In this document: in pieces, positions 5,542 through 35,853 of the stretch | Layout of the letters: every line of letters starts with the position of its first letter | Numbering within the stretch: the first letter of the stretch is position 1 | Source of the DNA: a virus | Taxonomy: Duplodnaviria > Heunggongvirae > Uroviricota > Caudoviricetes | Reading direction: 5' to 3' (one strand) | Virus record (IMG/VR): IMGVR_UViG_2897346870_000003 | Span: 1-36,958 of that record | DNA: 36,958 nucleotides | Notes under the pieces: model-generated | The model's database searches: none | The model's input: the letters and a program-made list of their open reading frames with translations, nothing else | What the model was told of the DNA's origin: nothing | Translations under genes and position numbers: made by a program

Positions 5542-5543
5542 TC

Positions 5544-7561: not shown

Positions 7562-7562
7562 G

Positions 7563-8929: not shown

Positions 8930-9514
8930 TTAATAATTCATATGAATTCTGTTTCCGAGATAATATAATCCAAAGAAAGTTGATACTAAGAGTTGCCAAA
9001 CGAGGAAAGTAAATACAACAGTATAAACCATTAAAACAATACTGTTTTGATAGACATTGATTAATGGTGAAAATATAGCATTAAGTATTATTATAACAAT
9101 GCTTAATGCTGTTAAAAAAGAGAATAGCATGCAAAGAAATAATCGTCTGGTCAGAACCTCCTCTGAATTTACTACTTTTCCATTTTCTTTTGTTACTTTT
9201 ATTTCAATAGAGGCATTTCTTTCATTGCTAATCAATGGTAAATCAATCTCAGCTCTATTGAAAGTTGCTATGGCGGCCAGAGCGGCAATATAAAACCCTG
9301 GTAGGTTAGAGATAAATGAAACGATTGATTTAATGAAACCATTGTCATCAAATAAATCTTTGACAGGGATTTTTAATAGAATGAAAAGTACTGCTGTGAT
9401 AGAAGTAAGTAGAATTGGTGCTACCCAATCATATGCAGCTTTGCCGCTAATACCTTTAATAAAAAGATATCCAAACGGCTTGCCTAGATGAGAGAAAACT
9501 GAAAGTATTGGCAT
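8930..9514 (-). CDS. Hypothetical 194-aa integral membrane protein with four predicted TM helices (candidate membrane effector)
   Basis: Four hydrophobic helices (WVAPILLTSITAVLFILL; IVSFISNLPGFYIAALAAIATF; LFLCMLFSFLTALSIVIIILNAIF; IVLMVYTVVFTFLVWQLLVSTFFGLYYL); GAGG Shine-Dalgarno; 7-nt gap to the upstream gene. Confidence 0.75.
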   Translation of the reverse strand: MPILSVFSHLGKPFGYLFIKGISGKAAYDWVAPILLTSITAVLFILLKIPVKDLFDDNGFIKSIVSFISNLPGFYIAALAAIATFNRAEIDLPLISNERNASIEIKVTKENGKVVNSEEVLTRRLFLCMLFSFLTALSIVIIILNAIFSPLINVYQNSIVLMVYTVVFTFLVWQLLVSTFFGLYYLGNRIHMNY

Positions 9515-9521
9515 AATAACC

Positions 9522-13651: not shown

Positions 13652-14146
13652 ATGGCTGGAACGGCGGGGCGTTCCGGGCGTCGCCCCAAGCCAACGGCGC
13701 GCAAGGCGCTGGCCGGAAACCCCGGCAAGCGAGCCCTGAATAAAGATGAACCTGTTTTTACGCCCATCAAAGGTGTTGAGCCACCGGAGTGGTTCGCTGA
13801 AGAAGATCTCCCTCTCGCTACGATCATGTGGCAACTGACAACTAAAGAACTCTGCGGTCAGGGCCTGCTGTGCGTGACTGACCTCGCGGTGCTTGAGCGG
13901 TGGTGCGTGGCCTACGAGTTCTGGCGACGTGCCGTGAAAAATATTGCCAGACAGGGCAACACCATCATCGGTGCAATGGGCGGTATGGTCAAAAATCCGG
14001 AGCTGACCGCCAAAAAAGAACAGGAGTCCGAGATGAGCAGTACGGGGGCAATGCTCGGACTCGACCCCAGCAGCCGCCAGCGTCTGATTGGCCTGGCGGG
14101 GAAGAAGAAAGCCACTAACCCGTTTCTGAAAATCATCGAATCATGA
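13652..14146 (+). CDS. Terminase small subunit
   Basis: Position upstream of and overlapping the large terminase; AGGAG Shine-Dalgarno; basic N-terminus. Confidence 0.85.
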
Positions 14147-15876
14147 GCCGGAAATCTTACCCCAACGTAAATGCTGCCAATCAGTATGCCCGGGATGTCG
14201 TGCGCGGAAAGATTGTGGCCTGCCAGTTTGTGATTCAGGCCTGCCAGCGCCATCTTGATGACCTAATGGCGGAAAAAAGTAAGTCGTTTCGTTACCGCTT
14301 CGACAAGGACCTGGCTGAACGGGCCGCCAAATTTATTCAGCTGTTGCCGCACACCAAGGGTGAGTGGGCATTTAAGAGGATGCCCATCACGCTGGAGCCG
14401 TGGCAGCTCTTTGTGATCTGCTGCGCGTTTGGCTGGGTCAATAAAGGCTCCCGGCTGCGCCGCTTCCGTGAGGTGTATACCGAAATCCCCCGTAAGAACG
14501 GCAAATCGGCAATCTCTGCCGGTGTCGCCCTGTATTGTTTTGCCTGTGATAACGAGTTCGGCGCGGAAGTGTATTCCGGTGCCACGACGGAGAAACAGGC
14601 ATGGGAAGTCTTTCGTCCGGCAAGACTGATGTGTAAACGCACACCCATGCTGACGGAAGCGTTCGGGATTGAGGTTAACGCCTCAAACATGAACCGTCCG
14701 GAGGATGGTGCGCGTTTTGAACCGCTGATCGGTAACCCCGGTGATGGTTCATCACCCCACTGTGCGGTGGTGGATGAATATCACGAGCACGCCACAGATG
14801 CACTTTACACCACGATGCTTACCGGGATGGGGGCGCGACGTCAGCCACTGATGTGGGCTATCACTACCGCCGGGTACAACATTGAGGGGCCGTGCTACGA
14901 CAAACGGCGGGAAGTCATCGAGATGCTCAACGGCTCGGTGCCTAACGATGAACTGTTCGGGATCATCTATACCGTTGATGAAGGTGACGACTGGACCGAC
15001 CCGCAGGTGCTGGAAAAAGCTAACCCGAATATCGGGGTGTCGGTTTATCGCGAGTTTTTGTTAAGTCAGCAGCAGCGTGCGAAAAATAACGCCCGTCTGG
15101 CAAACGTCTTTAAAACAAAACACCTCAATATCTGGGTGTCGGCGCGTTCGGCGTATTTCAACCTGGTGAGCTGGCAGAGCTGCGAGGATAAATCACTGAC
15201 CCTTGAGCAGTTCGAGGGGCAGCCGTGCATTCTGGCCTTTGACCTGGCGCGTAAGCTGGATATGAACAGCATGGCGCGACTTTATACCCGCGAGATTGAC
15301 GGTAAAACGCATTACTACAGTGTGGCTCCGCGCTTCTGGGTACCGTATGACACGGTGTACAGCGTCGAGAAAAATGAAGATCGACGGACAGCCGAACGCT
15401 TTCAGAAATGGGTGGAAATGGGCGTTCTGACCGTTACCGATGGTGCGGAGGTGGATTATCGCTACATCCTCGAGGAGGCCAAAGCGGCGAACAAAATCAG
15501 CCCGGTCAGTGAGTCACCCATCGACCCCTTCGGGGCGACCGGGCTGTCGCATGACCTTGCTGATGAAGACCTGAACCCCATCACCATCATTCAGAACTAC
15601 ACCAACATGTCCGATCCGATGAAAGAACTGGAAGCGGCGATTGAATCGGGGCGCTTTCATCATGACGGCAATCCCATCATGACCTGGTGTATCGGCAACG
15701 TGGTCGGCAAAACCATTCCGGGTAACGATGATGTGGTGAAGCCCGTCAAAGAGCAGGCGGAAAACAAAATCGATGGTGCAGTTGCGCTGATTATGGCGGT
15801 TGGCAGAGCCATGCTGTACGAGAAAGAAGACACGTTGTCTGACCACATTGAGTCCTATGGGATCCGCTCGCTTTAA
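14143..15876 (+). CDS. Terminase large subunit
   Basis: 577 aa; Walker A-like EIPRKNGKS and a C-terminal nuclease region. Confidence 0.95.
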
Positions 15877-21188: not shown

Positions 21189-21359
21189 ATGTTTGTCAAA
21201 CCTGTTAAAGGGCGGTCAGTTCCTGACCCTGCCCGCGGCGACCTTTTGCCCGCCGAAGGGCGAAATGTTGACGAGAACAACTACTGGCTGCGCCGTGAAG
21301 CAGCGGGTGATATCCGGCGCGTGAATAAAAAGGTGAATACCGATGACGATAAGCTTTAA
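21189..21359 (+). CDS. Small protein preceding the sheath (DUF2635-like, 56 aa); absent from the supplied ORF track because it is under 60 aa
   Basis: Translated by hand: MFVKPVKGRSVPDPARGDLLPAEGRNVDENNYWLRREAAGDIRRVNKKVNTDDDKL; GAGGA Shine-Dalgarno. Confidence 0.45.
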   Translation: MFVKPVKGRSVPDPARGDLLPAEGRNVDENNYWLRREAAGDIRRVNKKVNTDDDKL

Positions 21360-22839
21360 CACCATTCCGTCGAATACGCTGGTTCCGTTGTTTTATGCGG
21401 AAATGGATAACCAGGCGGCGAATACTGCACAGGACAGCGGAGCATCGCTGCTGATTGGTCATGCCAATAACGGTGCAGAGATTGTTGCCAACAGTCTGGT
21501 ACTGATGCCGTCGGCAGACTATGCACGCCAGATTTGTGGTGCGGGAAGTCAGCTGGCGCGTATGGTCGAGGCTTATCGCCAGACTGACCCGTTTGGCGAG
21601 CTGTATGTGATTGCCGTTCCTGAATCCACAGGCGCGGCGGCAACGGTTACGCTGACGGTGACCGGGGAAGCAACCGAAAGCGGCACGGTGAATGTCTATG
21701 TGGGACGTACCCGCGTGCAGGCTCCGGTGACCAACGGCGATAACGTCACGACGATTGCCAGCAGTATCCAGGATGCCATCAATGCCGTTCCGACTCTGCC
21801 GTTTACAGCTTCATCTTCGGCTGGTGTTGTCACGCTGACCGCGCGTCATAAGGGGCTTTGCGGGAATGAAATTCCTGTCAGCCTCAATTACTACGGCTTC
21901 GGTGGGGGTGAAGTGCTGCCAGCGGGCGTACAGATTGCCGTGGCGACGGGGACCGCCGGAACGGGCGCTCCGGTTCTCACCGGCGCGGTGGCTGCAATGG
22001 CGGATGAGCCGTTTGATTATATCGGTCTGCCGTTCAACGACACGGCCTCCGTTAACACACTGGTGACCGAGATGAACGATACCAGCGGTCGCTGGAGCTA
22101 TGCGCGTCAGCTGTATGGTCATGTGTATACGGCAAAGACCGGCACACTGTCAGAACTGGTGAACGCAGGTGACCAGTTTAACCAGCAGCACATCACCCTG
22201 GCGGGGTACGAAAAAGAGACCCAGACGCCTGCCGACGAGCTGGCGGCAAGCCGTACCGCCCGCGCAGCGGTGTTTATCCGCAACGATCCGGCACGTCCCA
22301 CGCAGACCGGTGAGCTGGTGGGTATGCTGCCTGCGCCGAAGGGGAAACGGTTCACGATGACCGAGCAGCAGACCCTGCTGTCTCATGGCGTGGCAACGGC
22401 GTATGTCGAAAGCGGGGGGCTGCGCATTCAGCGTGATGTCACCACGTACAGGAAAAATGCTTACGGGGTTGCGGATAACAGCTACCTCGACAGCGAGACG
22501 CTGCATACCAGTGCGTATGTACTGCGCAAACTGAAATCCGTCATTACCAGTAAGTACGGGCGTCACAAGCTTGCCAGCGACGGTACCCGCTTTGGTCCCG
22601 GTCAGGCGATTGTCACCCCGGCGGTAATCAAAGGGGAACTGCTGGCAACCTACCGTCAGCTTGAGCGTGCGGGGATCGTGGAAAACTACGAACTGTTTAA
22701 GCAGTACCTGGTTGTGGAGCGTGATGCCAGCGATCCGAACCGCCTGAACACGCTGTTCCCGCCTGACTATGTTAACCAGTTGCGTGTCTTTGCCTTGGTT
22801 AACCAGTTCCGTCTTCAGTATTCAGAGGAGTCTGCATAA
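21343..22839 (+). CDS. Contractile tail sheath protein (Mu gpL-like)
   Basis: 498 aa, followed by the tube gene. Confidence 0.88.
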   Translation: MTISFNTIPSNTLVPLFYAEMDNQAANTAQDSGASLLIGHANNGAEIVANSLVLMPSADYARQICGAGSQLARMVEAYRQTDPFGELYVIAVPESTGAAATVTLTVTGEATESGTVNVYVGRTRVQAPVTNGDNVTTIASSIQDAINAVPTLPFTASSSAGVVTLTARHKGLCGNEIPVSLNYYGFGGGEVLPAGVQIAVATGTAGTGAPVLTGAVAAMADEPFDYIGLPFNDTASVNTLVTEMNDTSGRWSYARQLYGHVYTAKTGTLSELVNAGDQFNQQHITLAGYEKETQTPADELAASRTARAAVFIRNDPARPTQTGELVGMLPAPKGKRFTMTEQQTLLSHGVATAYVESGGLRIQRDVTTYRKNAYGVADNSYLDSETLHTSAYVLRKLKSVITSKYGRHKLASDGTRFGPGQAIVTPAVIKGELLATYRQLERAGIVENYELFKQYLVVERDASDPNRLNTLFPPDYVNQLRVFALVNQFRLQYSEESA

Positions 22840-23464: not shown

Positions 23465-23613
23465 CGGCTGAATACCTCACTGATCGCTTCTTTGACTGCG
23501 CCAGCTACTGGCGCATTAATCCTTTCGAATTGCTGAATATGCCGATCAGTGAAATTCCCTTACTGGTCAGTCAGGCAAACAGGATAGAGCAGGAGAAACG
23601 CACACATGGCTGA
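23446..23613 (+). CDS. -1 frameshift extension of the tail assembly chaperone (long fusion form); slippery heptamer T_TTT_TTC at 23446-23452
   Basis: The -1 frame ORF overlaps the chaperone 3' end and runs to the tape measure start; the heptamer was read in the zero frame. Confidence 0.6.
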   Translation, partial: FFPPGLTAEYLTDRFFDCASYWRINPFELLNMPISEIPLLVSQANRIEQEKRTHG

Positions 23614-25438
23614 ATTTGAGCTTAAGGCGTTGATCACCGGTGTCGACAGGCTTTCTCCCGCGCTGTCGAAAATGCAAAAGAAAATCCGGGGATTTAAACG
23701 CCAGGCGGAAGAAGCGTCACAGGGTGGGCTGGCGCTTGGTGGCGGACTGGCAGCGGGTCTGACGCTTTCCCTGAAATCTTATGCCGATCAGGAAAACGCC
23801 GCCACCGGGCTGAAAGTCGCCATGATGGATGCGAACGGCGAGGTTGGAAAGAGCTTTCAGGACATCAATAAACTGGCTATTGGCCTGGGTAACCAGCTAC
23901 CCGGTACAACGGCTGATTTCCAGAACATGATGCAGATGCTGGTGCGTCAGGGGATCCCGGCAGAAAACATTCTTGGTGGTGTGGGTAAAGCGACAGCTTA
24001 TCTTGCGGTACAACTGAAAAAAACACCGGAAGCGGCTGCTGAGTTTGCTGCAAAGATGCAGGATGCTACCGGAACTGCGTCAGAAGACATGATGGGGCTG
24101 TTCGACACTATCCAGAAGGCGTTTTATCTGGGCGTTGACGATACCAACATGTTGTCCTTCTTCACTAAAACCAGTTCTGTTCTGAAGATGGTGAATAAGG
24201 ACGGACTTCAGGCTGCACAGAGCCTTGCCCCTATCAGCGTCATGATGGATCAGATGGGGATGAACGGGGAGTCGGCAGGTAATGCCCTGCGAAAAGTTAT
24301 CCAGTCCGGATTAAGCGTTAAGAAAATCAGGGACGTCAATAAAGTCATGGCCCGCCAGAAACTCGGAGTGCAGCTCGATTTTACTGACGGCAAAGGGAGT
24401 TTTGGCGGTCTTGATAACATGTTTAAGCAACTGGCAAAGCTGCGAAAACTGACCGACGTTAAGCGAACAGGTGTACTTAAGGCAATATTTGGTGATGATG
24501 CCGAAACCCTTCAGGTGGTCAATGCTCTGATCGATAAAGGAAAGGATGGTTACGATCAGATCCAGCAGAAGATGAATAAACAGGCCAGCCTGAATAAACG
24601 TGTTCAGGCACAGCTTGGTACGCTGTCCAACCTGTGGGAGGCAATGACGGGGACCGCAACTAACGGTCTTGCAGCTATTGGCGGCGCATTTTCTGGTGAC
24701 GCTAAAAATATCACGCAATGGCTGGGGGAGTTGGGGGAAAAATTCACGAAGTTTGCGGATGAAAATCCCCGGGTTATTCGCGGCGTCGTCGGGCTTGCTG
24801 CCGGTCTTGCGATTCTGAAACTGGGATTGATGGGCGTGGGCAGTGCCATCAGTATTGTCAGCAGGATCATGTCGATGACGCCGATTGGCATGATTGCGAC
24901 GGCGATTGCTCTGGCTGCGGGATTAATTATCACTAACTGGGATGTTGTCGGACCTTATTTCAAGAAGCTCTGGGAAACCATTGGTCCTTATTTTGAGGCT
25001 GGCCGGGAACTTCTGAAGAAGGTTTTTGCCTGGTCGCCGCTGGGGATGGTGATCAATAACTGGGGACCGGTTGTTAAGTGGTTTCAGGATATGTGGGATA
25101 AGCTGAAGCCGATTATTGAATGGTTTACCGGCAGTTCCGGTGACACGGTCGATACCATTAACTCGGCGCAGTGGGGCGCGGGTGCTTATGATGCTTATGG
25201 GACGGGAATACCGGCACGGGGATACACTCCTTATCCGGCGGTGGATCCGGCTCAGGCAAACAACGCCTCCGATGCCACAGGCTCGAATCCCTTCATGATT
25301 AATAAAGCTACCGCGCCAAAAGTTGATGGTGAGATCAAGGTATCATTTATAAATATGCCACCAGGTATGCGGGTTACGGAAACACGCTCCAGTGGCATTG
25401 ATATAAATCACGATGTTGGCTATACCCGATTTTGGTAG
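23606..25438 (+). CDS. Tail tape measure protein
   Basis: 610 aa, Ala/Gly-rich with hydrophobic stretch; position after the chaperone. Confidence 0.92.
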   Translation: MAEFELKALITGVDRLSPALSKMQKKIRGFKRQAEEASQGGLALGGGLAAGLTLSLKSYADQENAATGLKVAMMDANGEVGKSFQDINKLAIGLGNQLPGTTADFQNMMQMLVRQGIPAENILGGVGKATAYLAVQLKKTPEAAAEFAAKMQDATGTASEDMMGLFDTIQKAFYLGVDDTNMLSFFTKTSSVLKMVNKDGLQAAQSLAPISVMMDQMGMNGESAGNALRKVIQSGLSVKKIRDVNKVMARQKLGVQLDFTDGKGSFGGLDNMFKQLAKLRKLTDVKRTGVLKAIFGDDAETLQVVNALIDKGKDGYDQIQQKMNKQASLNKRVQAQLGTLSNLWEAMTGTATNGLAAIGGAFSGDAKNITQWLGELGEKFTKFADENPRVIRGVVGLAAGLAILKLGLMGVGSAISIVSRIMSMTPIGMIATAIALAAGLIITNWDVVGPYFKKLWETIGPYFEAGRELLKKVFAWSPLGMVINNWGPVVKWFQDMWDKLKPIIEWFTGSSGDTVDTINSAQWGAGAYDAYGTGIPARGYTPYPAVDPAQANNASDATGSNPFMINKATAPKVDGEIKVSFINMPPGMRVTETRSSGIDINHDVGYTRFW

Positions 25439-25529: not shown

Positions 25530-26060
25530 ATGAAAGGCTATATCACAGCAAGTGTAATTCTTGGATCAGCGGCTATTTTTTCATCTCTCATAATCTCTGG
25601 CAACATCTCCTTTAAAGATGAACATATTATTCAGTTATCTGGAGGAGCCATAAAACTTGGTGATGTTTATAAAGAAAATAAATTGATAAGTGCAAAGATT
25701 ATTTTTCCAGATAATCAGGGTGAACAGATTCTTGTTGTCGACGGCAATCCTGAAAACTTTAAGGAGGATTTTCAGGAGAAATTAAATAAAGTAATAAAAA
25801 CTTTAAATGCGTCAAAGAAAAAAGATGAAGAGAAAGTTAGCCTGGATAATTTAAGTGTTATTGAAGAGTCTAAACTAGAGCTCGTTTCTGCGGTGCGTTA
25901 CTCTGCTCAGTATGTTCCTATGTTTACTCTGACGCTGGACAAAAAAGAAATTACCATGCCTAAAAATACGGTAATATTTCCATTTGCCAGCGATGAAACA
26001 GCTAAGTATTTAAATGAACAACAGCAAAAGTATAAAGATTCGTTGTTTCTGACTCGCTAA
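25530..26060 (+). CDS. Hypothetical moron protein with N-terminal signal-anchor/TM helix (176 aa)
   Basis: AT-rich ORF between tape measure and baseplate genes; ITASVILGSAAIFSSLIIS hydrophobic N-terminus; Lys/Glu-rich body. Confidence 0.7.
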   Translation: MKGYITASVILGSAAIFSSLIISGNISFKDEHIIQLSGGAIKLGDVYKENKLISAKIIFPDNQGEQILVVDGNPENFKEDFQEKLNKVIKTLNASKKKDEEKVSLDNLSVIEESKLELVSAVRYSAQYVPMFTLTLDKKEITMPKNTVIFPFASDETAKYLNEQQQKYKDSLFLTR

Positions 26061-26121: not shown

Positions 26122-27450
26122 ATGACGTGGAAAGACAGGCTTCAGGACGCGTCATTTCGCGGCGTGCCGTTTAAGGTTGAAGAAGAAAGTGCGGGAACCG
26201 GTCGCCGTGTGGAAACACATGAATACCCGAACCGCGACAAACCCTATACCGAAGACCTGGGGAAAATCACTTTTCGCCCGTCCATCACGGCTTATGTGGT
26301 GGGAGATGACTGCTTTGACCAGCGCGATCGCCTGATTGACGCGCTGAATAAACCCGGTCCCGGCACGCTTGTCCACCCGACATACGGTGAGTTGAAAGTC
26401 TGTGTTGACGGGGAAGTTCGGGTCAGCACATCGAAGAGTGAAGGGCGTATTGTCCGCTTTGACCTGAAGTTTGTCGAAGCGGGAGATCTCTCTTACCCCA
26501 CATCAGGCGTGGCGACGGCGCAGACGCTGATGTCATCCTGTTCTGCACTGGATGACTGCATCAGTGACAGCTTCAGCGGTTTCAGTATCGATGGCGTGGC
26601 GGATTTTGTGCAGAACGACGTTATCGGTAATGCCAGCACAATGCTTGGGTATGTTTCTGATGCGATGAAAGTGGTGGATTCTGCTGTATCGGATGCCGCC
26701 AGGCTGTTGCAGGGGGATATCTCGGTACTTATGCCGCCGCCATCGTCAGGAAAAAATTTCGTTGAGCAGGTGCAGAAAATGTGGCGTACCGGGAAACGCC
26801 TTTATGGTAACGCCAGCGACCTGGTCACCATGATCAAAACGCTTTCTGGTGTCAGCCTCGGCAGCGATTTGCAACCGCGCGGCGTCTGGAAAACGGACAG
26901 TAAAACCACCGCCACAGCGACGCAGCAGCGTAACATGGTTGCCAGCACCCTTCGTACGACTGCAATCAGCGAAGCGGCGTATGCCGTTACCCGATTGCCT
27001 GCGCCAACAACTTCTGCGGTGATGCAGAATGCCGCAGTGGGGCAGTCAACAACACCCGCGCAGAGCTCCGGCTGGCCTGCCGTCACGCATCCGGTGCTGA
27101 ACAATGCACCGGCGGTGAAAAACACGGTTGACCTGCCAACGTGGGAAGAACTGACCGACATTCGCGACACACTGAATATGGCAATTGATAAGGAGTTGTC
27201 CCGTACAACCAGTGATGCGCTGTTTCTGGCGCTGCGCCGGGTGAAAGCAGATCTGAATGCGGATATCAACACGCGCCTTGAACAGTCTGCTCGGATCATT
27301 CAGCGCACGCCGGATGAGGTTTTACCCGCGCTGGTGCTGGCGGCGACCTGGTTTGATAACGCGGCGCGTGACGCGGACATTATCCGGCGTAATGCCATTA
27401 CGCATCCCGGCTTTGTGCCGGTGATCCCTCTGAAGGTGCCAGTGCAATGA
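26122..27450 (+). CDS. DNA circulation protein (Mu gpN-like)
   Basis: 442 aa after the tape measure/moron; N-terminal region typical of Mu N-like proteins. Confidence 0.85.
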   Translation: MTWKDRLQDASFRGVPFKVEEESAGTGRRVETHEYPNRDKPYTEDLGKITFRPSITAYVVGDDCFDQRDRLIDALNKPGPGTLVHPTYGELKVCVDGEVRVSTSKSEGRIVRFDLKFVEAGDLSYPTSGVATAQTLMSSCSALDDCISDSFSGFSIDGVADFVQNDVIGNASTMLGYVSDAMKVVDSAVSDAARLLQGDISVLMPPPSSGKNFVEQVQKMWRTGKRLYGNASDLVTMIKTLSGVSLGSDLQPRGVWKTDSKTTATATQQRNMVASTLRTTAISEAAYAVTRLPAPTTSAVMQNAAVGQSTTPAQSSGWPAVTHPVLNNAPAVKNTVDLPTWEELTDIRDTLNMAIDKELSRTTSDALFLALRRVKADLNADINTRLEQSARIIQRTPDEVLPALVLAATWFDNAARDADIIRRNAITHPGFVPVIPLKVPVQ

Positions 27451-28526
27451 ACGATAACGTCACGCTACGGGTAAATGGCCGGGAGTGGAATGGCTGGACA
27501 TCGGTGCGCATCGGTGCCGGTATTGAACGGCTGGCGCGGGATTTCAGCGTGGAGATCACCCGCCAGTGGCCGGGAGATGAGGGTATCACCACGCTTCAGC
27601 CGCGCATTAAAAATGGTTCAAAAGTGGAAGTGCTGATTGGTGATGAGCTGGTGATCACCGGCTGGGTGGAGGCGACCCCCGTTCGTTACGATGCCCGTTC
27701 GGTCAGCACCGGTATTGCCGGACGTAGTCTGACTGCTGACCTGATTGACTGTGCAGCCGAACCGACACAGTTTAACGGACGATCGCTGGTACAGATTGCG
27801 CAGGCGCTTGCTGCGCCTTTCGGCATTGAGGTGGTGAACAGCGATGCGCCGTCGGGTGTTATTCCGGATGTCCAGCCTGATCACGGTGAAACGGTGATCG
27901 AGGTGATCAACAAAATACTCGGTCAGCAGCAGGCGCTGGCTTATGACGACCCGCACGGCAGGCTGGTGATTGGTGGTATTGGCTCAACGCGGGCACATAC
28001 CGCGCTGGTACTTGGGGAAAACATCCTTTCCTGTGATACGGAGAAGAGTATCCGGGAGCGGTTTTCAGTTTACCAGGTGGCGGGGCAGCGTGCCGGAAAC
28101 GACGATGATTTCGGTGAGGCCACCACCACCGCGCTGCGGGCCCGCACAGAGGATGCATTTATTGCCCGTTACCGTCCGATGTATATCAGGCAGACAGGGC
28201 AGGCTACGGGGGCAGGCTGTATTGCGCGTGCTGACTTTGAAGCCCGACAACGGGCGGCGCGGACGGATGAAACCACCTATGTGGTGCAGGGCTGGCGACA
28301 GGGTAACGGTACGCTGTGGCAGCCCAACCAGCGGGTGATTGTCTTCGATCCGGTCTGTGGTTTCGACAATACCGAACTGCTTGTCTCGGAAGTCACGTTT
28401 ACTCAGGACCAGAATGGCACCCTGACGGAAATCCGTGTCGGCCCACCTGATGCTTATCTGCCTGAACCCGAAGCCCCCGGCGCGCGGAAAAAGAAAAAAG
28501 CCAGAGTACAGGAGGACCCGTTCTGA
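27447..28526 (+). CDS. Baseplate hub protein (Mu gpP / P2 gpD-like)
   Basis: 359 aa; position and size. Confidence 0.85.
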   Translation: MNDNVTLRVNGREWNGWTSVRIGAGIERLARDFSVEITRQWPGDEGITTLQPRIKNGSKVEVLIGDELVITGWVEATPVRYDARSVSTGIAGRSLTADLIDCAAEPTQFNGRSLVQIAQALAAPFGIEVVNSDAPSGVIPDVQPDHGETVIEVINKILGQQQALAYDDPHGRLVIGGIGSTRAHTALVLGENILSCDTEKSIRERFSVYQVAGQRAGNDDDFGEATTTALRARTEDAFIARYRPMYIRQTGQATGAGCIARADFEARQRAARTDETTYVVQGWRQGNGTLWQPNQRVIVFDPVCGFDNTELLVSEVTFTQDQNGTLTEIRVGPPDAYLPEPEAPGARKKKKARVQEDPF

Positions 28527-29074
28527 TGAAGGCGATTGAAACCATACAGCGACAACTCCTCGGCCTGATTGGGCGGGCGGTGGTGAAAAGCATCAGTGCC
28601 GCCACGAAATGTCAGACCGTGGATGTGTCCCTGATTGCCGGTGAACCCAAAGCCGGGGTTGAACATCTTGAACCCTACGGTTTTACCGCAAGGGCAAACA
28701 GCGGTGCGGAAGCGGTGGTGTTGTTTCCGGATGGTGACCGTTCTCATGCGGTGGTTGTTACGGTGTCGGACCGGCGCTACCGCCTGAAAGGGCTGCAGAC
28801 GGGTGAGGTGGCTGTCTATGACGATCAGGGGCAGTCCGTGACGCTGACCCGGGAGGGGATCGTGGTGGACGGTGCAGGTAAAACGATCACGTTTCGCAAT
28901 TCACCTAAAGCACGTTTTGAAATGGACCTGGAAGTGACAGGACAGGTGAAAGACCTGTGCGACTCCAGCGGCACCACCATGTCAGCGATGCGGCTTGCCT
29001 ATAACGGGCATCGTCACAGAGAGAACGGTCAGGGCAGTAACACCGACAAACCTGATAAAGCGATGGAGGCATGA
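28526..29074 (+). CDS. Baseplate spike/assembly protein (Mu gp45 / gpV-like)
   Basis: 182 aa; position. Confidence 0.8.
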   Translation: MKAIETIQRQLLGLIGRAVVKSISAATKCQTVDVSLIAGEPKAGVEHLEPYGFTARANSGAEAVVLFPDGDRSHAVVVTVSDRRYRLKGLQTGEVAVYDDQGQSVTLTREGIVVDGAGKTITFRNSPKARFEMDLEVTGQVKDLCDSSGTTMSAMRLAYNGHRHRENGQGSNTDKPDKAMEA

Positions 29075-29499
29075 TGGAACTGTGGCTGACGGTGAACGGT
29101 AAACGCACCTGCGCCAGCGCACCGCTGGATCCGCTGACCCGCGCCGTGGTGATTTCCCTGTTTACCTGGCGGCGGGCGGAGCCTGATGACAACGCCGACG
29201 TCCCGATGGGATGGTGGGGGGATACCTGGCCTGCGGTACAGAATGACCGTTACGGCTCCCGACTGTGGCTGCTTCAGCGCAGCAAACTGACCAATCAGCT
29301 GGTGCTGACGGTAAGGGGGTATATCCGCGAATGCCTGCAATGGATGATTGATGACGGCGTGGTGTCCCGTATTGATCTGGATATCCGCCGCACCGGGATT
29401 AATGAACTGGGTAACAGTATCACTCTCTGGCGTCGTGACGGACCGGTAATGATTTCTTTTGATGATCTGTGGAGTGCGATAACGCATGGCGGACAGTGA
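29071..29499 (+). CDS. Baseplate protein (Mu gp46-like)
   Basis: 142 aa; position. Confidence 0.8.
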   Translation: MMELWLTVNGKRTCASAPLDPLTRAVVISLFTWRRAEPDDNADVPMGWWGDTWPAVQNDRYGSRLWLLQRSKLTNQLVLTVRGYIRECLQWMIDDGVVSRIDLDIRRTGINELGNSITLWRRDGPVMISFDDLWSAITHGGQ

Positions 29500-30544
29500 A
29501 TTTCAGCGCCCGACGCTGGCAGAAAATATCAGTATGCTCCGTAACGATTTATTCGCCAGGCTGGACGTCAGCGACACGCTCCGGCGCATGGATGAAGACG
29601 TGCGGGCAAAGGTGTATGCGGCGGCGCTGCATACGGTTTACGGGTACATCGATTATCTGGCAATGAACATGCTGCCTGACCTGTGCGATGAGTTCTGGCT
29701 GGCGCGACATGCTGCGATGAAACGGTGTCCGCGCAAGGGGGCCACGGCTGCCAGCGGGTATATGCGCTGGGAAGGTGTCAGCGATGGCCTGAAGGTGACC
29801 GCCGGGAGTGTTATTCAGCGCGATGACCTGGTTCAGTATACTGCAACTGCCGATGCAACCAGCTCCGGTGGTGTCCTGCGCGTGCCGATCGCCTGCTCAA
29901 ATGCAGGCGCGGTCGGTAACGCTGACGACGGTACGGCATTAATCCTGGTCACGCCGGTGAATGGTCTGCCGTCTTCCGGTGTGGCTGACACCCTGACAGG
30001 CGGATTTGAAACTGAAGAGCTGGAAACGTGGCGCGCCCGCGTCATTGAGCGGTATTACTGGACGCCGCAGGGCGGGGCTGACGGGGACTATGTCGTCTGG
30101 GCTAAAGAAGTGCCCGGCATTACCCGCGCATGGACATACCGTCACTGGATGGGAACGGGAACTGTCGGTGTGATGATTGCCAGCAGTGACCTGATTAATC
30201 CCATTCCGGAAGAATCAACGGAAACGGCGGCAAGACAACATATCGGGCCACTGGCCCCGGTGGCAGGCTCTGATTTGTATGTGTTCAGGCCGGTGGCACA
30301 TACGGTGGATTTTCATATCCGCGTGACGCCGGACACACCGGAAATACGGGCTGCCATCACCGCGGAGTTGCGTTCGTTCCTGCTGCGTGATGGTTATCCG
30401 CAGGGAGAACTGAAGGTATCGCGTATCAGTGAGGCGATTTCCGGTGCGAACGGGGAATACAGCCATCAGTTGCTTGCACCGGCAGACGATATCTCCATTG
30501 CAAAAAATGAACTGGCGGTACTGGGGACGATTTCATGGACGTGA
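29486..30544 (+). CDS. Baseplate J-like protein (Mu gp47-like)
   Basis: 352 aa; position. Confidence 0.88.
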
Positions 30545-31119
30545 CAAACGATGATTACATCCGCCTGTTATCGGCACTGTTGCCGCCCGGTCCGGCGTGG
30601 TCAGCCAGCGATCCGGCGATTGCCGGTGCGGCACCGTCATTAACCCGTGTTCATCAGCGTGCGGATGCCCTGATGCGGGAGCTGGATCCGCGCACCACCA
30701 CTGAACTGATAAACCGCTGGGAGCGTCTGTGCGGTCTGCCGGATGAATGTATTCCGGCGGGAACGCAGACCCTTCGCCAGCGTCAGCAACGGCTGGATGC
30801 GAAGGTTAACCTGGCGGGCGGCATCAACGAGGATTTTTATCTTGCACAGCTTGCTGCCCTGGGCAGACCAGATGCCACCATCACGCGATACGACAAAAGC
30901 ACGTTCACCTGCTCATCGGCCTGTACTGACGCGGTGAATGCGCCGGAATGGCGGTATTACTGGCAGGTCAACATGCCAACCACCACCAACACCACCTGGA
31001 TGACATGTGGCGATCCCTGTGATTCCGCACTGCGTATCTGGGGTGACACCGTTGTCGAGTGTGTGCTTAACAAACTCTGCCCGTCGCATACCTACGTAAT
31101 TTTTAAATATCCGGAGTAA
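30535..31119 (+). CDS. Baseplate/tail protein (Mu gp48-like, DUF2313)
   Basis: 194 aa; position before the tail fibre gene. Confidence 0.85.
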
Positions 31120-31122
31120 TCC

Positions 31123-31875
31123 ATGCATCGTATAGACACGAAAACCGCGCAGAAGGATAAGTTCGGCGCGGGTAAGAACGGTTTTACCCGTGGTAACCCC
31201 CAGACTGGTACGCCTGCCACCGATCTGGATGATGACTACTTTGACATGTTGCAGGAGGAGCTTTGCAGCGTTGTGGAGGCATCCGGTGCCAGCCTGGAGA
31301 AGGGGCGGCATGACCAGCTGCTTACCGCGCTTCATGCGCTGCTGTTAAGCCGCAAGAATCCGTTTGGCGATATCAAATCGGATGGCACGGTGAAAACGGC
31401 TCTCGAAAACCTTGGTTTGGGGTTGGGTTCGGCATTACCCGTTGGCGTACCTGTTCCGTGGCCTTTGACCACACCGCCAACAGGCTGGATGAAATGCAAC
31501 GGTTCCAGATTTAGCCTGACAGGTTACCCCGCGCTTGCCGCTGTGTTCCCTTCTGGTGTGCTTCCAGACCTGCGCGGTGAGTTTATCCGAGGATGGGATG
31601 ATGGGCGCGGTGTCGATGCTGGCCGTGCAATAATGACAACGCAAGAGGATGCCATCCAAAATATTACCGGCGAAGTTGGTTTTATTCAGTATTTTGGCGA
31701 AACGCATCATTCTGGCGCGCTGTTTCCCGGTGGTGCTCAAAACATCACCAACGTAGATCCGGGCGGTGATACTAGAGCTCAAAGTGTGTTCTTTGATGCG
31801 TCAAGATCTGTACGAACCGCATCAGAAAACCGTCCGCGTAACATCGCGTTTAACTACATTGTAAGGGCAGCATGA
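31123..31875 (+). CDS. Tail fibre protein (constant N-terminus fused to the currently expressed variable C-terminus)
   Basis: 250 aa; the hix-like crossover site lies at codons 95-102 (ENLGLGLG). Confidence 0.85.
31400..31425. other. Left inversion crossover site (hix/gix-like): CTCTCGAAAACC-TT-GGTTTGGGGTTG
   Basis: Left half matches the recalled hixL half TTCTTGAAAACC in 10 of 11 positions; core TT. Confidence 0.7.
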
Positions 31876-32483
31876 TGACCGTAAACGAAATCACTTTAGA
31901 CGAAAATGGATTTGCCACGGAAGCTGGCTTTATTACCGTTTACAACTACAACGGCGAAACGCGGGAGTATATTTCTTCATCACTTGAATTCCTGCCTTTT
32001 GGTGTTGGCGTTCCTGCTCATTCCACAACTGAGGCACCAGGAGAAAGCAAGGCCGGTTTTGCCATCCGCAGGACCGCTGATTTGACTGGCTGGGAGCTTG
32101 CGCCAGACCATCGCGGCGAAACTGTTTACAGCACGACCAATGGCAAACCTGTAACTGTTTCACAGTTGGGCGAATACCCGGAAGGAACCACCGTCAAAGC
32201 GCCTTCTACGCAATACGACAAATGGGATGGCAAAAAATGGGTGACTGATAGCGATGAACAGCATCGCGCCGCAGTAGAAGCGGCAGAAGCACAGCGCCAG
32301 TCGCTGATTGATGCTGCAATGGCTTCCATCAGTCTGATTCAACTGAAATTACAGGCCGGGCGGAAGCTGACGCAGCCAGAAAACACCCGACTTAACGCTG
32401 TGCTGGATTATATTGACGCGGTGACGGCAACAGATACCAGCACAGCGCCGGATGTCATCTGGCCTGAACTGCCGGAGGCGTAG
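31872..32483 (+). CDS. Tail fibre assembly protein (expressed orientation)
   Basis: 203 aa after the fibre gene; conserved C-terminal ...VIWPELPEA. Confidence 0.85.
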
Positions 32484-32892
32484 GCCATTCAATATCTGGC
32501 ACACTGGAGGTATCAACCAGCTCCAGTGCGTCCAGATAATCCAGCCACGAATTATATTGCGCCAGTTCCTCGCCTTTCAGACGACCAATAGCGGCTTTAC
32601 CGGGCCATTGTTTACTGTTCATGTATTCGTTGGCCTGATTAATTAATAGCTGTCTTTTTGACTCAGAAATTTCAATAAGTTCTTCATGCGTGGGTGAAGG
32701 AATATCTGCCCACGCAGGCATTCCGTCTGCACCTGCAATACGTCGCTTACCCTGCGGAGGTGTCGCCATAAACGACTCGGCACGTCGGGTTTCAATATCT
32801 TTTGCATCATCAGGCCATGTGCCGGAATCGCGGTATACGGCCTCATTACCAGCCAGATAAAACGCATTTTTTTTAGCACTGTATTTGTACAT
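32455..32892 (-). CDS. Tail fibre assembly protein (alternative, silent orientation)
   Basis: 145 aa; related C-terminus ...[13 protein letters not shown]; inverted within the segment. Confidence 0.8.
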   Translation of the reverse strand: MYKYSAKKNAFYLAGNEAVYRDSGTWPDDAKDIETRRAESFMATPPQGKRRIAGADGMPAWADIPSPTHEELIEISESKRQLLINQANEYMNSKQWPGKAAIGRLKGEELAQYNSWLDYLDALELVDTSSVPDIEWPTPPAVQAR

Positions 32893-32893
32893 A

Positions 32894-33466
32894 TTATTTC
32901 CCTACCGCAATCCAGAAAAATGAACTCATGCTGGCTACTGGTGCTCCGCCCGCTGTTGGAATCATCAGATTTCGGACGCCGCATCCTAAATTAGTTATCG
33001 TTGGCGCTGAAATTACTGGCGACTGAACTACGTTAGGAAGCGATGCCTGCTGAGGACCAAATCCCACATACATCGGGTATGCAGAGAACGCGACAGGAAA
33101 CGTAATAAAGATCTCTCCAGTTGATGATGGATTGGCTGTCCCCCACTGAATAATCAGACCTGACGGTAATTTTTGCCAGCCATGGCTGGTCAGGCTGGAT
33201 GTGAAGTCATTCATATCCGGAATCTGATTTGCCCCTGAGCCAACATCCCTTTGAGCCGCACTTTTCAGATCAAGATAAGTTCTTAGTTCAGCCTTATCCT
33301 TACCGCTTAAATCTGTCAGTGTCTGGTCTTTTGGTTGCGCATAGTCTTTTGTTGCCAGACGAACTACTGTATTTGTTCTGGCGAATCGCATATACGGGGC
33401 ATTGACGTTACTACTGTCAAACCCTGCAATTTTACATTCATCACCAATTAATGCATCTCCCAAACC
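32894..33466 (-). CDS. Alternative tail-fibre variable C-terminal segment (no native start; expressed only after inversion)
   Basis: Minus-strand ORF whose 5' end crosses the right recombination site; joining the constant part at the crossover gives in-frame ...ENLGLGDALIGDECKIAG... Confidence 0.7.
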   Translation of the reverse strand, partial: GLGDALIGDECKIAGFDSSNVNAPYMRFARTNTVVRLATKDYAQPKDQTLTDLSGKDKAELRTYLDLKSAAQRDVGSGANQIPDMNDFTSSLTSHGWQKLPSGLIIQWGTANPSSTGEIFITFPVAFSAYPMYVGFGPQQASLPNVVQSPVISAPTITNLGCGVRNLMIPTAGGAPVASMSSFFWIAVGK

Positions 33467-33480
33467 AACGTTTATGAAAA
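33455..33480. other. Right inversion crossover site: ATCTCCCAAACC-AA-CGTTTATGAAAA, inverted relative to the left site
   Basis: Core AA is the reverse complement of the left core TT; the 13-bp inverted repeat AAC(C/G)TTGGTTTGGG is shared with the left site. Confidence 0.7.
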
Positions 33481-33534
33481 TGCAGAAATAACGAGCAAAT
33501 GGCATCATTCCTGCTTTTGTCAGGGAGATCTACC

Positions 33535-34089
33535 ATGCTTATTGGCTATGTACGTGTGTCAACAAATGACCAGAACACAGATCTACAACGTAATGCGCTG
33601 AACTGTGCAGGATGCGAGCTGATTTTTGAAGACAAGATAAGCGGTACAAAGTCCGAAAGGCCGGGACTGAAAAAACTGCTCAGGACATTATCGGCAGGTG
33701 ATACGCTGGTGGTCTGGAAACTGGACCGACTGGGGCGCAGTATGCGGCATCTTGTCGTGCTGGTGGAGGAGTTGCGCGAACGAGGCATCAACTTTCGTAG
33801 TCTGACGGATTCAATTGATACCAGTACCCCAATGGGGCGCTTTTTCTTTCATGTGATGGGTGCCCTGGCTGAAATGGAGCGTGAACTGATTGTTGAAAGA
33901 ACAAAAGCTGGACTGGAAGCTGCTCGCGCACAGGGACGAATTGGTGGACGTCGTCCCAAACTTACACCAGAACAATGGGAACAGGCCGGACGATTAATTG
34001 CATCAGGCGTTCCTCGCCAGAAGGTGGCGATTATCTATGATGTTGGTGTGTCAACTTTGTATAAGAGGTTTCCTGCAGGGGATAAATAA
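33535..34089 (+). CDS. pin: Serine DNA invertase (Hin/Gin/Pin family)
   Basis: MLIGYVRVSTNDQNTDLQ... with catalytic Ser, C-terminal HTH; AGGGAGA Shine-Dalgarno. Confidence 0.95.
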   Translation: MLIGYVRVSTNDQNTDLQRNALNCAGCELIFEDKISGTKSERPGLKKLLRTLSAGDTLVVWKLDRLGRSMRHLVVLVEELRERGINFRSLTDSIDTSTPMGRFFFHVMGALAEMERELIVERTKAGLEAARAQGRIGGRRPKLTPEQWEQAGRLIASGVPRQKVAIIYDVGVSTLYKRFPAGDK

Positions 34090-34195
34090 AGTTAAAGACA
34101 CTTTGTGTACAAAAGAAAGTAAAACAACAGCAACTTGTTGCAATTTTATCAATAAAAGTAGTATTGTCGTGAAAAATTGATTAAAGATTAATATT

Positions 34196-35029
34196 ATGCA
34201 TGTTTTTGATAATAATGGAATTGAACTGAAAGCTGAGTGTTCGATAGGTGAAGAGGATGGTGTTTATGGTCTAATCCTTGAGTCGTGGGGGCCGGGTGAC
34301 AGAAACAAAGATTACAATATCGCTCTTGATTATATCATTGAACGGTTGGTTGATTCTGGTGTATACCAAGTCGTAGTATATCTGGCGTCATCATCAGTCA
34401 GAAAACATATGCATTCTTTGGATGAAAGAAAAATCCATCCTGGTGAATATTTTACTTTGATTGGTAATAGCCCCCGCGATATACGCTTGAAGATGTGTGG
34501 TTATCAGGCTTATTTTAGTCGTGCGGGGAGAAAGGAAATTCCTTCCGGCAATAGAACGAAACGAATATTGATAAATGTTCCAAGTATTTATAGTGGCAGT
34601 TTTTGGGCGTCTATAATACGTGGAGAACTATCAGAGCTTTCACAGCCTACAGATGATGAATCGCTTCTGAATATGAGGGTTAGTAAATTAATTAAGAAAA
34701 CGTTGAGTCAACCCGAGGGCTCCAGGAAACCAGTTGAGGTAGAAAGACTACAAAAAGTTTATGTCCGAGACCCGATGGTAAAAGCTTGGATTTTACAGCA
34801 AAGTAAAGGTATATGTGAAAACTGTGGTAAAAATGCTCCGTTTTATTTAAATGATGGAAACCCATATTTGGAAGTGCATCATGTAATTCCCCTGTCTTCA
34901 GGTGGTGCTGATACAACAGATAACTGTGTTGCCCTTTGTCCGAATTGCCATAGAGAATTGCACTATAGTAAAAATGCAAAAGAACTAATCGAGATGCTTT
35001 ACGTTAATATAAACCGATTACAGAAATAA
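34196..35029 (+). CDS. mcrA: McrA-type HNH restriction endonuclease (modified-cytosine restriction)
   Basis: 277 aa; C-terminal HNH motif (CENCG...HHVIPLSSGGADTTDNCVALCPNCH); the pin-mcrA pairing next to the icd fragment matches the recalled e14 arrangement. Confidence 0.85.
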   Translation: MHVFDNNGIELKAECSIGEEDGVYGLILESWGPGDRNKDYNIALDYIIERLVDSGVYQVVVYLASSSVRKHMHSLDERKIHPGEYFTLIGNSPRDIRLKMCGYQAYFSRAGRKEIPSGNRTKRILINVPSIYSGSFWASIIRGELSELSQPTDDESLLNMRVSKLIKKTLSQPEGSRKPVEVERLQKVYVRDPMVKAWILQQSKGICENCGKNAPFYLNDGNPYLEVHHVIPLSSGGADTTDNCVALCPNCHRELHYSKNAKELIEMLYVNINRLQK

Positions 35030-35167
35030 AATTATTTATTAAAGTCACATTTAAGACGTAATATCCTACAGGGTAAAAATTTTCTCTGATCTTAACTTCT
35101 GCAAATGTTAACTGCTATTTTTATGCTAAAAATGGTTATCAAAACTCAAAAACACATGTTTATAATC

Positions 35168-35204
35168 AATGAGTTATAGAAATGCTAAGGGCTAATGAGT
35201 TATA
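35168..35204 (+). repeat. Direct repeats AATGAGTTATA (x2, 26 bp apart) in the AT-rich att-proximal arm; candidate Int arm-type or IHF sites
   Basis: Read directly at 35168-35178 and 35194-35204. Confidence 0.4.
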
Positions 35205-35262
35205 TGCAAATTAGTAAAATTATGTTGCTATGTCAAATAGTTACGATTTAGTCATCTAACTA

Positions 35263-35427
35263 ATGCTGCGCCATATGGGTTGGACTGAAGCGGCTGACCT
35301 GATTGTTAAAGGTATGGAAGGCGCAATCAATGCCAAGACCGTAACTTATGACTTCGAACGTCTGATGGAAGGCGCTAAGCTGCTGAAATGTTCAGAGTTT
35401 GGTGAAGCGATCATCGAAAACATGTAA
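35263..35427 (+). pseudogene. icdC: Displaced 3' end of isocitrate dehydrogenase gene icd (icdC remnant) marking attR
   Basis: Translates to [54 protein letters not shown], the Icd C-terminus as recalled; no upstream icd sequence. Confidence 0.9.
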
Positions 35428-35529: not shown

Positions 35530-35853
35530 TTACTTGAGCCCATATGGGCATATTTTTATAATGCAACTATTATGTAAACATTTATTTGTTATTTTGCTTT
35601 CTCCTGGAGGACACTCTTGACTGCTTTTGAGTAAACTCCATAAATCCTTGTTGAATGGTGCGATGTGATAAATAGTAATAGGATATTCTTTATCCTTAAG
35701 GATAATACCAGACTTAACCGGTGTAAATATACTGCCAGGAGGGAGAAATATAGTAGATTGATACCAGATGATCATTTTCATATTACCCCATATGGCTGAA
35801 AAAGATATACCACATGTAGGTTGAATTACCGTGTCAATTACTATCCACTTCAT
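35530..35853 (-). CDS. iraM: Anti-adaptor protein IraM-like (107 aa), host gene beyond attR
   Basis: 107-aa ORF in an AT-rich region right after the icd remnant; matches the recalled K-12 order mcrA-icdC-iraM-ycgX and IraM size; not searched. Confidence 0.7.

Follow-up and report, generated by a model that had tools for sequence, protein, structure and literature searches.

The window (the whole stretch of 36,958 bases that we analysed) very probably carries an invertible tail-fibre switch that has two sites and Pin as its catalyst. The switch lies at the right end of a prophage of the e14 family, SfII/SfV-like and apparently intact, which is integrated in icd. In kind it is the classical P-segment system of Pin, here with another cassette pair.

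Recombination sites

Two imperfectly dyad-symmetric 26-bp sites bound the invertible segment. The left site lies at 31400-31425 (CTCTCGAAAACC-TT-GGTTTGGGGTTG, core TT at 31412-31413) and the right site at 33455-33480 (ATCTCCCAAACC-AA-CGTTTATGAAAA, core AA at 33467-33468); read from the sequence, the reverse complement of the right site is TTTTCATAAACG-TT-GGTTTGGGAGAT. The sites are inverted relative to each other and have the same 2-bp core, TT on the left and, on the right, AA on the plus strand, which is TT on the minus strand. All four half-sites are ended by AAAC[C/G], and the inner half-site of cassette A (CAACCCCAAACC) deviates from the others at its outer positions. A first-pass annotation of this DNA had placed inverted sites with these cores at the same positions, and a motif search agreed: AAAC[C/G]TTGGTTTGGG, with up to two mismatches, had two matches in all 36,958 bases, namely the two sites, one per strand, where shuffled sequence gave an expectation of 0.18. 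A multi-site system with more than two sites, such as the p15B Min type or the shufflons, was rejected on the same count, since allowing two mismatches still gave just two site matches across the window.

An inverted-repeat search recovered the sites as a 15-nt repeat (31407-31421 and 33459-33473), 93% complementary and with 2,037 nt between the arms. By length this repeat ranked only 8th of the 35 inverted pairs in 3.2 kb, which is unremarkable, and the case therefore rests on the uniqueness of the motif, on the identity to the K-12 sites and on the breakpoints described below. The outer half-sites and the core-proximal bases are those of the K-12 e14 sites, identical over 26-27 nt, and AAACC..GGTTT is common to these sites and Mu gix. 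At the left site, homology to many other phage fibre loci starts at 31401, while at the right site homology to K-12 picks up again at 33456. Homology to other phages begins or ends exactly at the sites, which marks them as module boundaries.

Sequence comparisons narrowed the exchange to the 10-bp interval TTGGTTTGGG (31412-31421). The earlier description of the sites as mapped to the base was a slight overstatement: exchange within this interval stands, but its placement at the central TT is one that we take over from the family. On that assumption, cleavage would fall exactly at TT.

Fibre gene, cassettes and reading frames

The left site lies inside the expressed fibre gene (ORF 31123-31875, plus strand). 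Codons 1-97 (31123-31413) lie outside the invertible segment and form a constant N-terminal part that matches PHROG tail-fibre N-terminal entries and is identical to the N-terminus of K-12 e14 StfP at 95 of its 97 residues. Codons 98-250 (31414-31875, plus strand) encode the cassette A tip, which is expressed in the present orientation, has a Phage Tail Collar domain (Pfam PF07484, E 2.6e-13) and is part of a cassette found at 99.1% identity in a P2-like prophage of strains 0H15-0H26. The cassette A tail-fibre assembly chaperone (31872-32483, plus strand, 203 aa; Pfam Caudo_TAP, E 5e-31; PHROG 105) starts within the stop of the fibre gene (ATGA). Convergent with it, and overlapping it by 29 nt, is the cassette B chaperone (32455-32892, minus strand, 145 aa; Pfam Caudo_TAP, E 2.2e-29). 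Behind this lies the cassette B fibre tip (32894-33466, minus strand), silent in the present orientation, with a gp53-like C-terminal domain (Pfam PF21882, E 2.2e-13) and 99.8% identity to a P2-like fibre tip in E. coli B and C strains. For the fibre and chaperone proteins, NCBIfam has no model.

The left core occupies positions 2-3 of the Leu97 codon, in the context ..T-A-L-E-N-L-G-L-G.., which agrees with the ENLGLG codons named in the first-pass annotation; the right core occupies positions 2-3 of a Val codon on the minus strand, in the context ..F-I-N-V-G-L-G-D-A-L-I-G... Because both cores stand at codon positions 2-3, inversion is in frame. Inversion in silico at the cores gave a 287-aa fibre with the junction ...ENL-GLGDALIGDECKIAG, followed, 2 nt past the fibre stop, by the cassette B chaperone gene (tfaB). 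Both the in-frame alternative fibre and the assembly gene said to accompany it were borne out in this way.

Prophage setting and both orientations in public data

The switch lies next to mcrA, where the SfII/SfV-like myovirus prophage in icd, apparently intact, has its right end, and the order pin, mcrA, icd 3' fragment, iraM, ycgX is the K-12 order. Integrase, repressor, terminase, sheath, tape measure and baseplate genes were found, and the prophage is 96.6% identical to phage vB_EcoM-689R6 over 84% of a 25-kb query. Judged by this gene content, the prophage is apparently intact and looks viable. The K-12 e14 element is a deletion remnant of this SfII/SfV-like kind of phage.

It had been predicted that both orientations should exist, and both are indeed on record, though in different samples. 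An exact-protein look-up found the predicted 287-aa chimeric fibre, residue for residue, in the public collection. The contig that encodes it (L007, 6,872 bp) is the in-silico inverted window at 28505-35376, one SNP apart; the SNP, at 35064, is far from the sites, the inversion breakpoints are at both sites, and the cassette B tip is joined to the constant part. The window's own orientation was found in four other assemblies (L008-L011). With the inversion and one SNP as the only differences in 6.9 kb between L007 and the window, the flip must be very recent. Among 5,426 complete E. coli genomes, the predicted inverted junction was absent, as was the cassette pair in e14 in either orientation, the best match covering 63% at 89.6%.

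Related loci behaved in the same way. Two isogenic strains with complete genomes, 0H26 and 0H23, are told apart only by an inversion around cassette A in their P2-like prophage, and the exchange between them is confined to TTGGTTTGGG, the same 10-bp interval as in the window. For K-12 e14, both junctions occur at 100% identity among complete genomes, 166 genomes having one and 515 the other (counting matches that covered at least 80% of the query).

The silent cassette as a possible free protein

The right site is spanned by an ATG-initiated ORF (32894-33508, minus strand) that starts with a 14-codon leader (MMPFARYFCIFINV, 33469-33508, minus strand) lying outside the segment. Thanks to the leader, the silent cassette has an ORF with an ATG start whichever way the segment lies, of 204 aa here and of 166 aa for the counterpart in L007. 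This raises the possibility that the function under selection is host defence, instead of or besides virion host range, with the leader-fused 'silent' tip made as a free receptor-binding protein that would mask surface receptors against other phages. The leader is conserved in K-12 stfE (15 of 18 residues), the S' ORF of Mu likewise starts outside the G segment, and K-12 StfE2, a leader joined to a gp53-like tip, is reported in PMC12529663 to block T2 adsorption; the window's leader is also joined to a gp53-like tip. However, that effect is itself reported from producing the protein, and cassette B and the K-12 StfP tip share only about 31% identity over 62 aa. A promoter scan found no promoter-like site for the orphan ORF, and the AGGA that abuts its first ATG is poorly spaced. 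Promoter and terminator scans overall returned chance-level hits, none of them of use for pin or the orphan ORF. Finally, each cassette has kept a chaperone of its own in a prophage that looks intact, as would suit use in the virion. We consider a defensive function unlikely, and just as unlikely its fuller form, in which one inversion toggles both the host range of the virion and the set of foreign phages that the lysogen excludes by receptor masking. If true, what was reported in 2025 for StfE2 of the K-12 remnant would also apply to an intact phage.

The invertase Pin and a candidate enhancer

The gene for the invertase directly follows the sites, as the first reading had stated: pin (33535-34089, plus strand) starts 54 nt after the right site and encodes a 184-aa serine DNA invertase with an N-terminal catalytic Resolvase domain (Pfam, E 1.5e-51) and a C-terminal helix-turn-helix (HTH_7, E 1.4e-13). 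The protein aligns end to end with the Gin structure 3uj3 (E 5.5e-95), is 97.8% identical to K-12 PinE, from which it differs at 4 residues, and is 78% identical to Mu Gin. The catalytic residues S9, R7, D64, R65 and R68 are all there, which places Pin among the small serine recombinases. The invertase subclass is set apart in Hin by K47, R/K48 and R/K51 in helix B and by Q151, R154 and L155 at the Fis contact (PMC3798978); Pin, whose numbering is that of Hin minus one, has the basic helix-B residues K46, K47 and R50 and the Fis-contact residues Q150, R153 and L154. Inactivating mutations in the invertase had been named as something that would speak against the switch, but Pin is full length and every catalytic and invertase-subclass residue that was checked is in place. 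Pin is the probable catalyst of inversion in this strain.

These features bear on whether the switch still works. It could be a fossil in this strain, the sites and the gene remaining after inversion had ceased, so that the orientations in the databases would be old events. Locked relatives are known: pinE is frameshifted in G47-1, and the invertase is truncated in the P2-like remnant of E. coli B. Here, however, the catalytic and Fis-contact residues are intact in a full-length protein that is 4 residues from the active K-12 PinE, and a single SNP in 6.9 kb between L007 and the window points to a very recent flip. A fossil is therefore very unlikely. Least credible of all is that the orientations differ through RecA recombination between short inverted repeats, or through an assembly artefact, without site-specific inversion. 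A 15-nt repeat does lie at the breakpoints, but RecA needs longer repeats to recombine efficiently, and 15 nt is also below usual assembly k-mers. Both RecA recombination and misassembly were rejected as the source of the inverted contig, because the repeat is too short, the breakpoints match the sites of a family that needs its invertase for inversion (K-12 pinE mutants are locked; PMC12529663), and an independent pair of isogenic strains with complete genomes shows exchange in the same interval.

Site-specific inversion by Pin is expected to draw on a recombinational enhancer with two Fis sites, and a candidate Fis enhancer was located inside the 5' end of pin, at 33556-33619. Its block GT[A/G]TCAACAAATGACCAGAA (33556-33578) is invariant across pin, gin and one P2-like invertase gene, and identical codons are in excess within codons 1-20 of the invertase gene (8/17 versus 21/108), a modest signal. 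The Fis motifs assigned within it are putative. The first element of the candidate is centred about 95 bp from the centre of the right site, close to the distance of about 100 bp between the hin enhancer and its site (PMC3798978). By homology and codon conservation, the 5' end of pin may hold a Fis enhancer, and inversion may depend on Fis and on this element and, as is usual in the family, on supercoiling; calling the switch 'complete', as the first-pass annotation did, depends on this candidate.

Discussion

The proposed mechanism is as follows. Pin dimers would bind both 26-bp sites, and the sites would synapse, probably on a Fis-bound enhancer within the 5' end of pin. Staggered cuts of 2 nt at the central TT, rotation and religation would then invert about 2,055 bp, core to core. 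The first 97 fibre codons and the upstream late-operon transcription would stay fixed, while the fibre tip and its cognate chaperone would flip. Orientation 1, that of the window, would yield a 250-aa fibre with the Collar-domain tip together with the 203-aa Tfa, and orientation 2 a 287-aa fibre with the gp53-like tip together with the 145-aa Tfa. Because tip and chaperone flip together, a lysogen population should release virions with two receptor specificities, and the inversion would be expected to switch host range in the phase-variable manner that was first suggested.

The mechanism, the type of site, the invertase and even the chromosomal locus were already known in the 1980s, and the locus has little value as a discovery; the first-pass annotation had not connected it with the e14 Pin system. 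It is a clean worked example of an apparently intact e14-type phage with a switch that looks to be working and has both orientations on record, and it offers an intact-phage setting for examining the recently claimed role of e14 inversion in host defence. P2-like prophages also have its two fibre tips, at exactly the same join site, so the recombination sites double as module boundaries for the exchange of host-range cassettes. A possible use lies in forecasting which hosts SfII/SfV-like phages can infect once induced.

Comparison with known systems

The closest system is the e14 P segment of K-12 with PinE, for which PMC4272514 cites Plasterk and van de Putte (1985) and which is also treated in PMC12529663. 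Both occupy the icd attachment site and are followed on the right by mcrA, the icd 3' fragment and iraM, and both have the gene order fibre, tfa, tfa', fibre', pin; the outer half-sites and core are identical, as are 97.8% of the invertase and 95/97 residues of the constant part. In contrast, both variable cassettes differ, and the K-12 stfP/tfaP and stfE/tfaE cassettes (a 1,797-bp segment) are not carried in the window. K-12 has 1,797 nt between its repeats rather than 2,037 nt, inner half-sites that differ from the window's at the outer 4-5 positions, and a perfect repeat of 16 nt where the window has 15 nt with one mismatch. The terminase, portal and baseplate J genes of K-12 e14 are truncated, whereas the window's prophage appears intact. 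Inside the segment, identity to K-12 is 77-79% over the tfa region, and the cassette B tip has no match there. As the interior is only partly K-12-like and the pair is absent from the complete genomes, the locus is best described as an allele of the e14 system with different cassettes. The K-12 segment has been inverted experimentally by PinE and by PinQ, and a pinE mutant is locked (PMC12529663; PMC4272514).

The G segment of Mu with Gin is built alike: the N-terminal part of the fibre is constant, two tip-plus-chaperone cassettes converge, the sites are 26 bp long and the invertase gene lies just outside. The invertase is 78% identical, the AAACC..GGTTT site core is common to both, and the silent S' ORF of Mu also begins outside the segment. 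Unlike the window, Mu has the gix core TC instead of TT, a much longer constant part, cassettes unrelated at the DNA level and another phage backbone.

P2-like prophages have the cassettes themselves, cassette A in 0H15-0H26 (99.1%) and cassette B in the E. coli B/C remnant (99.8%), joined at the same NLGLG/NVGLG site. They differ in a long P2 H-type constant part, in the other partner cassettes and in an invertase of 193 aa that is 84% identical to Pin; the copy in E. coli B is locked by its truncated invertase. The H segment of Salmonella has an invertase of the same subclass, Hin, with the helix-B basic and Fis-contact residues conserved (PMC3798978), and likewise 26-bp sites. Its enhancer sits within the 5' part of hin, where pin has its candidate. 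The H segment flips a promoter for flagellin genes instead of fusing fibre coding sequences.

Results

The locus was mapped by reading positions 29800-34600 together with the ORF listing, and domains were assigned with Pfam. The baseplate J gene (29486-30544, +; Baseplate_J) and the Mu gp48-like gene ymfQ (30535-31119, +; Phage_Mu_Gp48) are followed by genes for a 250-aa fibre (31123-31875, +; Collar) and a 203-aa tail-fibre assembly chaperone, or Tfa (31872-32483, +; Caudo_TAP); this expressed tip and chaperone are termed cassette A. The silent cassette B, on the minus strand, comprises a 145-aa assembly gene (32455-32892; Caudo_TAP) and a 204-aa ORF with a fibre-tip domain (32894-33508; Gp53-like_C). 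To its right lie the 184-aa recombinase gene pin (33535-34089, +; Resolvase and HTH_7), mcrA (34196-35029, +; HNH), a 54-codon 3' fragment of icd (35263-35427, +; Iso_dh) and, in the ORF listing, iraM (35530-35853, −). The two chaperone genes are convergent and overlap by 29 nt (32455-32483). An 18-nt inverted repeat (89%; 32402-32419 and 32528-32545) spans this overlap and was rejected as a recombination site, since it encodes the common C-terminal Tfa motif (LDYIDA/LDYLDAL).

The left recombination site (31400-31425) reads CTCTCGAAAACC-TT-GGTTTGGGGTTG, and the right site (33455-33480) reads ATCTCCCAAACC-AA-CGTTTATGAAAA, with the reverse complement TTTTCATAAACG-TT-GGTTTGGGAGAT. In a repeat search they shared a 15-nt inverted repeat that has a single mismatch and arms 2,037 nt apart, which by length alone is unexceptional for the region. 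However, the pattern AAAC[C/G]TTGGTTTGGG, allowing up to two mismatches, matched the two sites only, one per strand, in the whole window (0.18 matches expected), which argues for a two-site switch. A multi-site switch was rejected, as the looser pattern AAACCNNGGTTT gave just two further matches in the window, at chance level. The left core occupies positions 2-3 of the Leu97 codon (...ALENLGLG...), and the right core positions 2-3 of a Val codon on the minus strand (...FINVGLGDALIG...), in agreement with the reading frames proposed in the first-pass annotation.

The window was then inverted in silico from core to core. The fibre ORF became 287 aa long, with constant residues 1-97 followed by GLGDALIGDECKIAG... 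and ending ...FFWIAVGK, and the 145-aa chaperone gene began 2 nt past its stop. An exact-sequence search of public data recovered the 250-aa fibre as well as the predicted 287-aa chimera. The chimera lies on L007, a 6,872-bp contig from the Logan assembly of SRR26255011, in the order baseplate genes, 287-aa fibre, 145-aa Tfa (+), 203-aa Tfa (−), 166-aa Collar ORF (−), 184-aa recombinase and HNH gene. L007 is colinear with positions 28505-35376 of the inverted window, and both junctions match the prediction base for base. The single mismatch, at 35064, is distant from the sites; it is a T/C difference in the interval from mcrA to the icd fragment, and it sets the window apart from L007 and also from L008. 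Against the uninverted window, L007 splits into three aligned blocks, with overlaps at 31407-31421 and 33459-33473. The bases on either side differ (C/G at 31411/33469 and G/A at 31422/33458), which places the exchange within TTGGTTTGGG; by analogy with the family mechanism, it would occur exactly at the central TT. The window's own orientation is present in four other assemblies (L008-L011) at 99.98-100% identity; L009 and L010 each carry one mismatch and a 1-nt indel. The first-pass annotation, which had predicted inversion to an in-frame alternative fibre accompanied by the alternative assembly gene, was thus accurate. In several NCBI records the 287-aa fibre and its close relatives (P0016-P0018, P0027) are labelled 'RNA polymerase beta' or 'ybl47', which appears to be an annotation error spread between records.

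When pin, K-12 pinE, Mu gin and a P2-like invertase gene were aligned over the stretch that begins at the right site and continues into the 5' end of the gene, an invariant block, GT[A/G]TCAACAAATGACCAGAA, appeared at 33556-33578, with a second conserved patch, CAGGATG, about 49 bp beyond it. Among pin, gin and the P2-like gene, nucleotide conservation across 33556-33619 is unusually strong, synonymous positions included. Where the amino acid is conserved, about 8 of 17 codons are identical within codons 1-20, compared with 21 of 108 elsewhere. This pattern is suggestive of a candidate Fis enhancer embedded in the coding sequence. In this invertase subclass the sites are 26 bp and the enhancer is 65 bp, with a Fis site at both ends, about 100 bp from one recombination site; basic helix-B residues (Hin 47, 48 and 51) are conserved, and Q151, R154 and L155 of Hin contact Fis (McLean et al., PMC3798978). 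Pin carries K46, K47 and R50, and Q150, R153 and L154, its numbering being that of Hin minus one. Pin can be aligned over its full length with the sequence of the Gin crystal structure (E 5.5e-95) and is 78% identical to Mu Gin and 84% to the P2-like prophage invertase.

Both cassettes recur in other prophages. Cassette A (31426-32480) shares 99.1% identity with a P2-like prophage cassette in the isogenic strains 0H15-0H26, of which 0H23 holds it reversed. Comparison of 0H26 with 0H23 gave a clean inversion with 16-nt overlaps, and the two differences fall at the C/G position immediately 5' to TT, indicating the same exchange interval as in the window's element. For cassette B (32484-33454), the counterpart is the tip and chaperone of a P2-like remnant found in E. 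coli B and C strains (99.8% identity), where the tip is joined at the same site to a long P2 H-type fibre. The invertase of this remnant is truncated in BL21(DE3) (locus L005, 2589-2828), and that switch appears locked. Many invertible fibre loci in the phage collection match only from query position 302 onwards, corresponding to window position 31401 at the left site. The recombination sites thus double as borders of exchangeable host-range modules, a pattern reportedly noted by Sandmeier and colleagues in the 1990s.

The rest of the window comprises an integrase (1-1131, −), an S24 repressor (2695-3369, −), a CII-like regulator (3692-4255, +), replication-protein-like (HTH/DnaD-N), KilA-N and DUF968 genes (4600-8558, +), terminase (14143-15876, +), sheath (21343-22839, +), tape measure (23606-25438, +) and a Mu-like baseplate region (27447-31119, +). 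The early region is lambdoid, while the sheath and baseplate genes are Mu-like. Positions 6001-31000 are 96.6% identical to phage vB_EcoM-689R6 across 84% of their length, and the morphogenesis half is about 97% identical to Shigella phages SfII, SfI, SfIV and SfV. Positions 1-31119 make up a nearly whole SfII/SfV/vB_EcoM-689R6-like myovirus prophage at icd. A low-GC (~31%) two-gene insert (8930-10544, −) separates the DUF968 gene from the lysis region and matches the PADLOC candidate defence system PDC-M53 (protein B, 8930-9514, −, E 1.8e-54; protein A, 9522-10544, −, E 2.1e-32); neither protein matched a Pfam family above the curated cutoff. A 176-aa ORF (25530-26060) in a local GC dip (~42%), between the tape measure and DNA-circulation genes, had no Pfam match, and its PHROG matches were solely to unknown-function families.

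Discussion

A Pin-catalysed invertible fibre switch is very probably the best explanation of these data. Pin would invert the segment, probably with the assistance of Fis, replacing one fibre tip and its chaperone with the other while the N-terminal 97 residues stay constant. The predicted outcome is two virion receptor specificities, which we hold with less confidence than the switch itself. Because the prophage is nearly whole, use of the switch by the virion is plausible.

In a rival or additional role, the unselected tip would be made as a receptor-blocking product. The 14-codon leader MMPFARYFCIFINV (33469-33508, −) lies outside the right site and provides an ATG-initiated ORF for the unselected tip in either orientation. 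K-12 stfE has the conserved leader as well, and annotation of the Mu S' ORF follows similar lines, with its start outside G. The K-12 analogue StfE2 (leader plus gp53-like product) is reported to block T2 adsorption (PMC12529663). However, a promoter scan found none for the leader ORF and its Shine-Dalgarno spacing is poor, so we give this role only a small chance.

A fossil switch, in which inversion no longer occurs, is unlikely: Pin is full length and retains its catalytic and Fis-contact residues, and the inversion and one SNP are all that distinguish L007 from the window, which points to a very recent flip. RecA recombination or an artefact is likewise an unlikely source of the inversion, since the breakpoints fall at sites of a family in which inversion requires the invertase, and the 0H26/0H23 pair uses the same interval. 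We regard L007 as real sequence and not a misassembly, a judgement about k-mer length: assemblers normally work with k-mers longer than the 15-nt repeat.

The closest known system is e14 of K-12, where the segment is a documented invertible element with flanking repeats TTGGTTTGGGAGAAGG; it is reported to be inverted by PinE and by PinQ, to be locked in a pinE mutant, and to occur in both orientations together in cultures (PMC12529663; PMC4272514). Both K-12 junctions were found at 100% identity in complete genomes (e.g. C600 and J53 versus MG1655 and DH5alpha), and matches covering at least 80% of the query placed 166 genomes in one orientation and 515 in the other. In E. coli G47-1 (locus L002, 5481-6036) pinE is frameshifted, and this related switch appears locked. 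Homology between K-12 e14 and the window covers 30900-31506 and picks up again precisely at the right site (33456), with the same rightward gene order (pinE, mcrA, icd fragment, iraM, ycgX, bluR). PinE is 97.8% identical to Pin (4 substitutions), and 95 of the 97 constant fibre residues are shared. In their outer half-sites and the bases next to the core, the K-12 sites match both window sites exactly, whereas the inner half-sites diverge at the outer 4-5 positions, a consequence of the different cassettes. Unlike in the window, the terminase, portal and baseplate J genes of K-12 e14 are truncated, so it looks like a deletion remnant of an SfII/SfV/vB_EcoM-689R6-like phage. The window's cassette pair was absent from the 5,426 complete E. 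coli genomes searched, and occurs in several draft assemblies. The switch is real and ordinary, and of a type already known: it amounts to the classical Pin/e14 system carrying a different cassette pair, in effect an allele.
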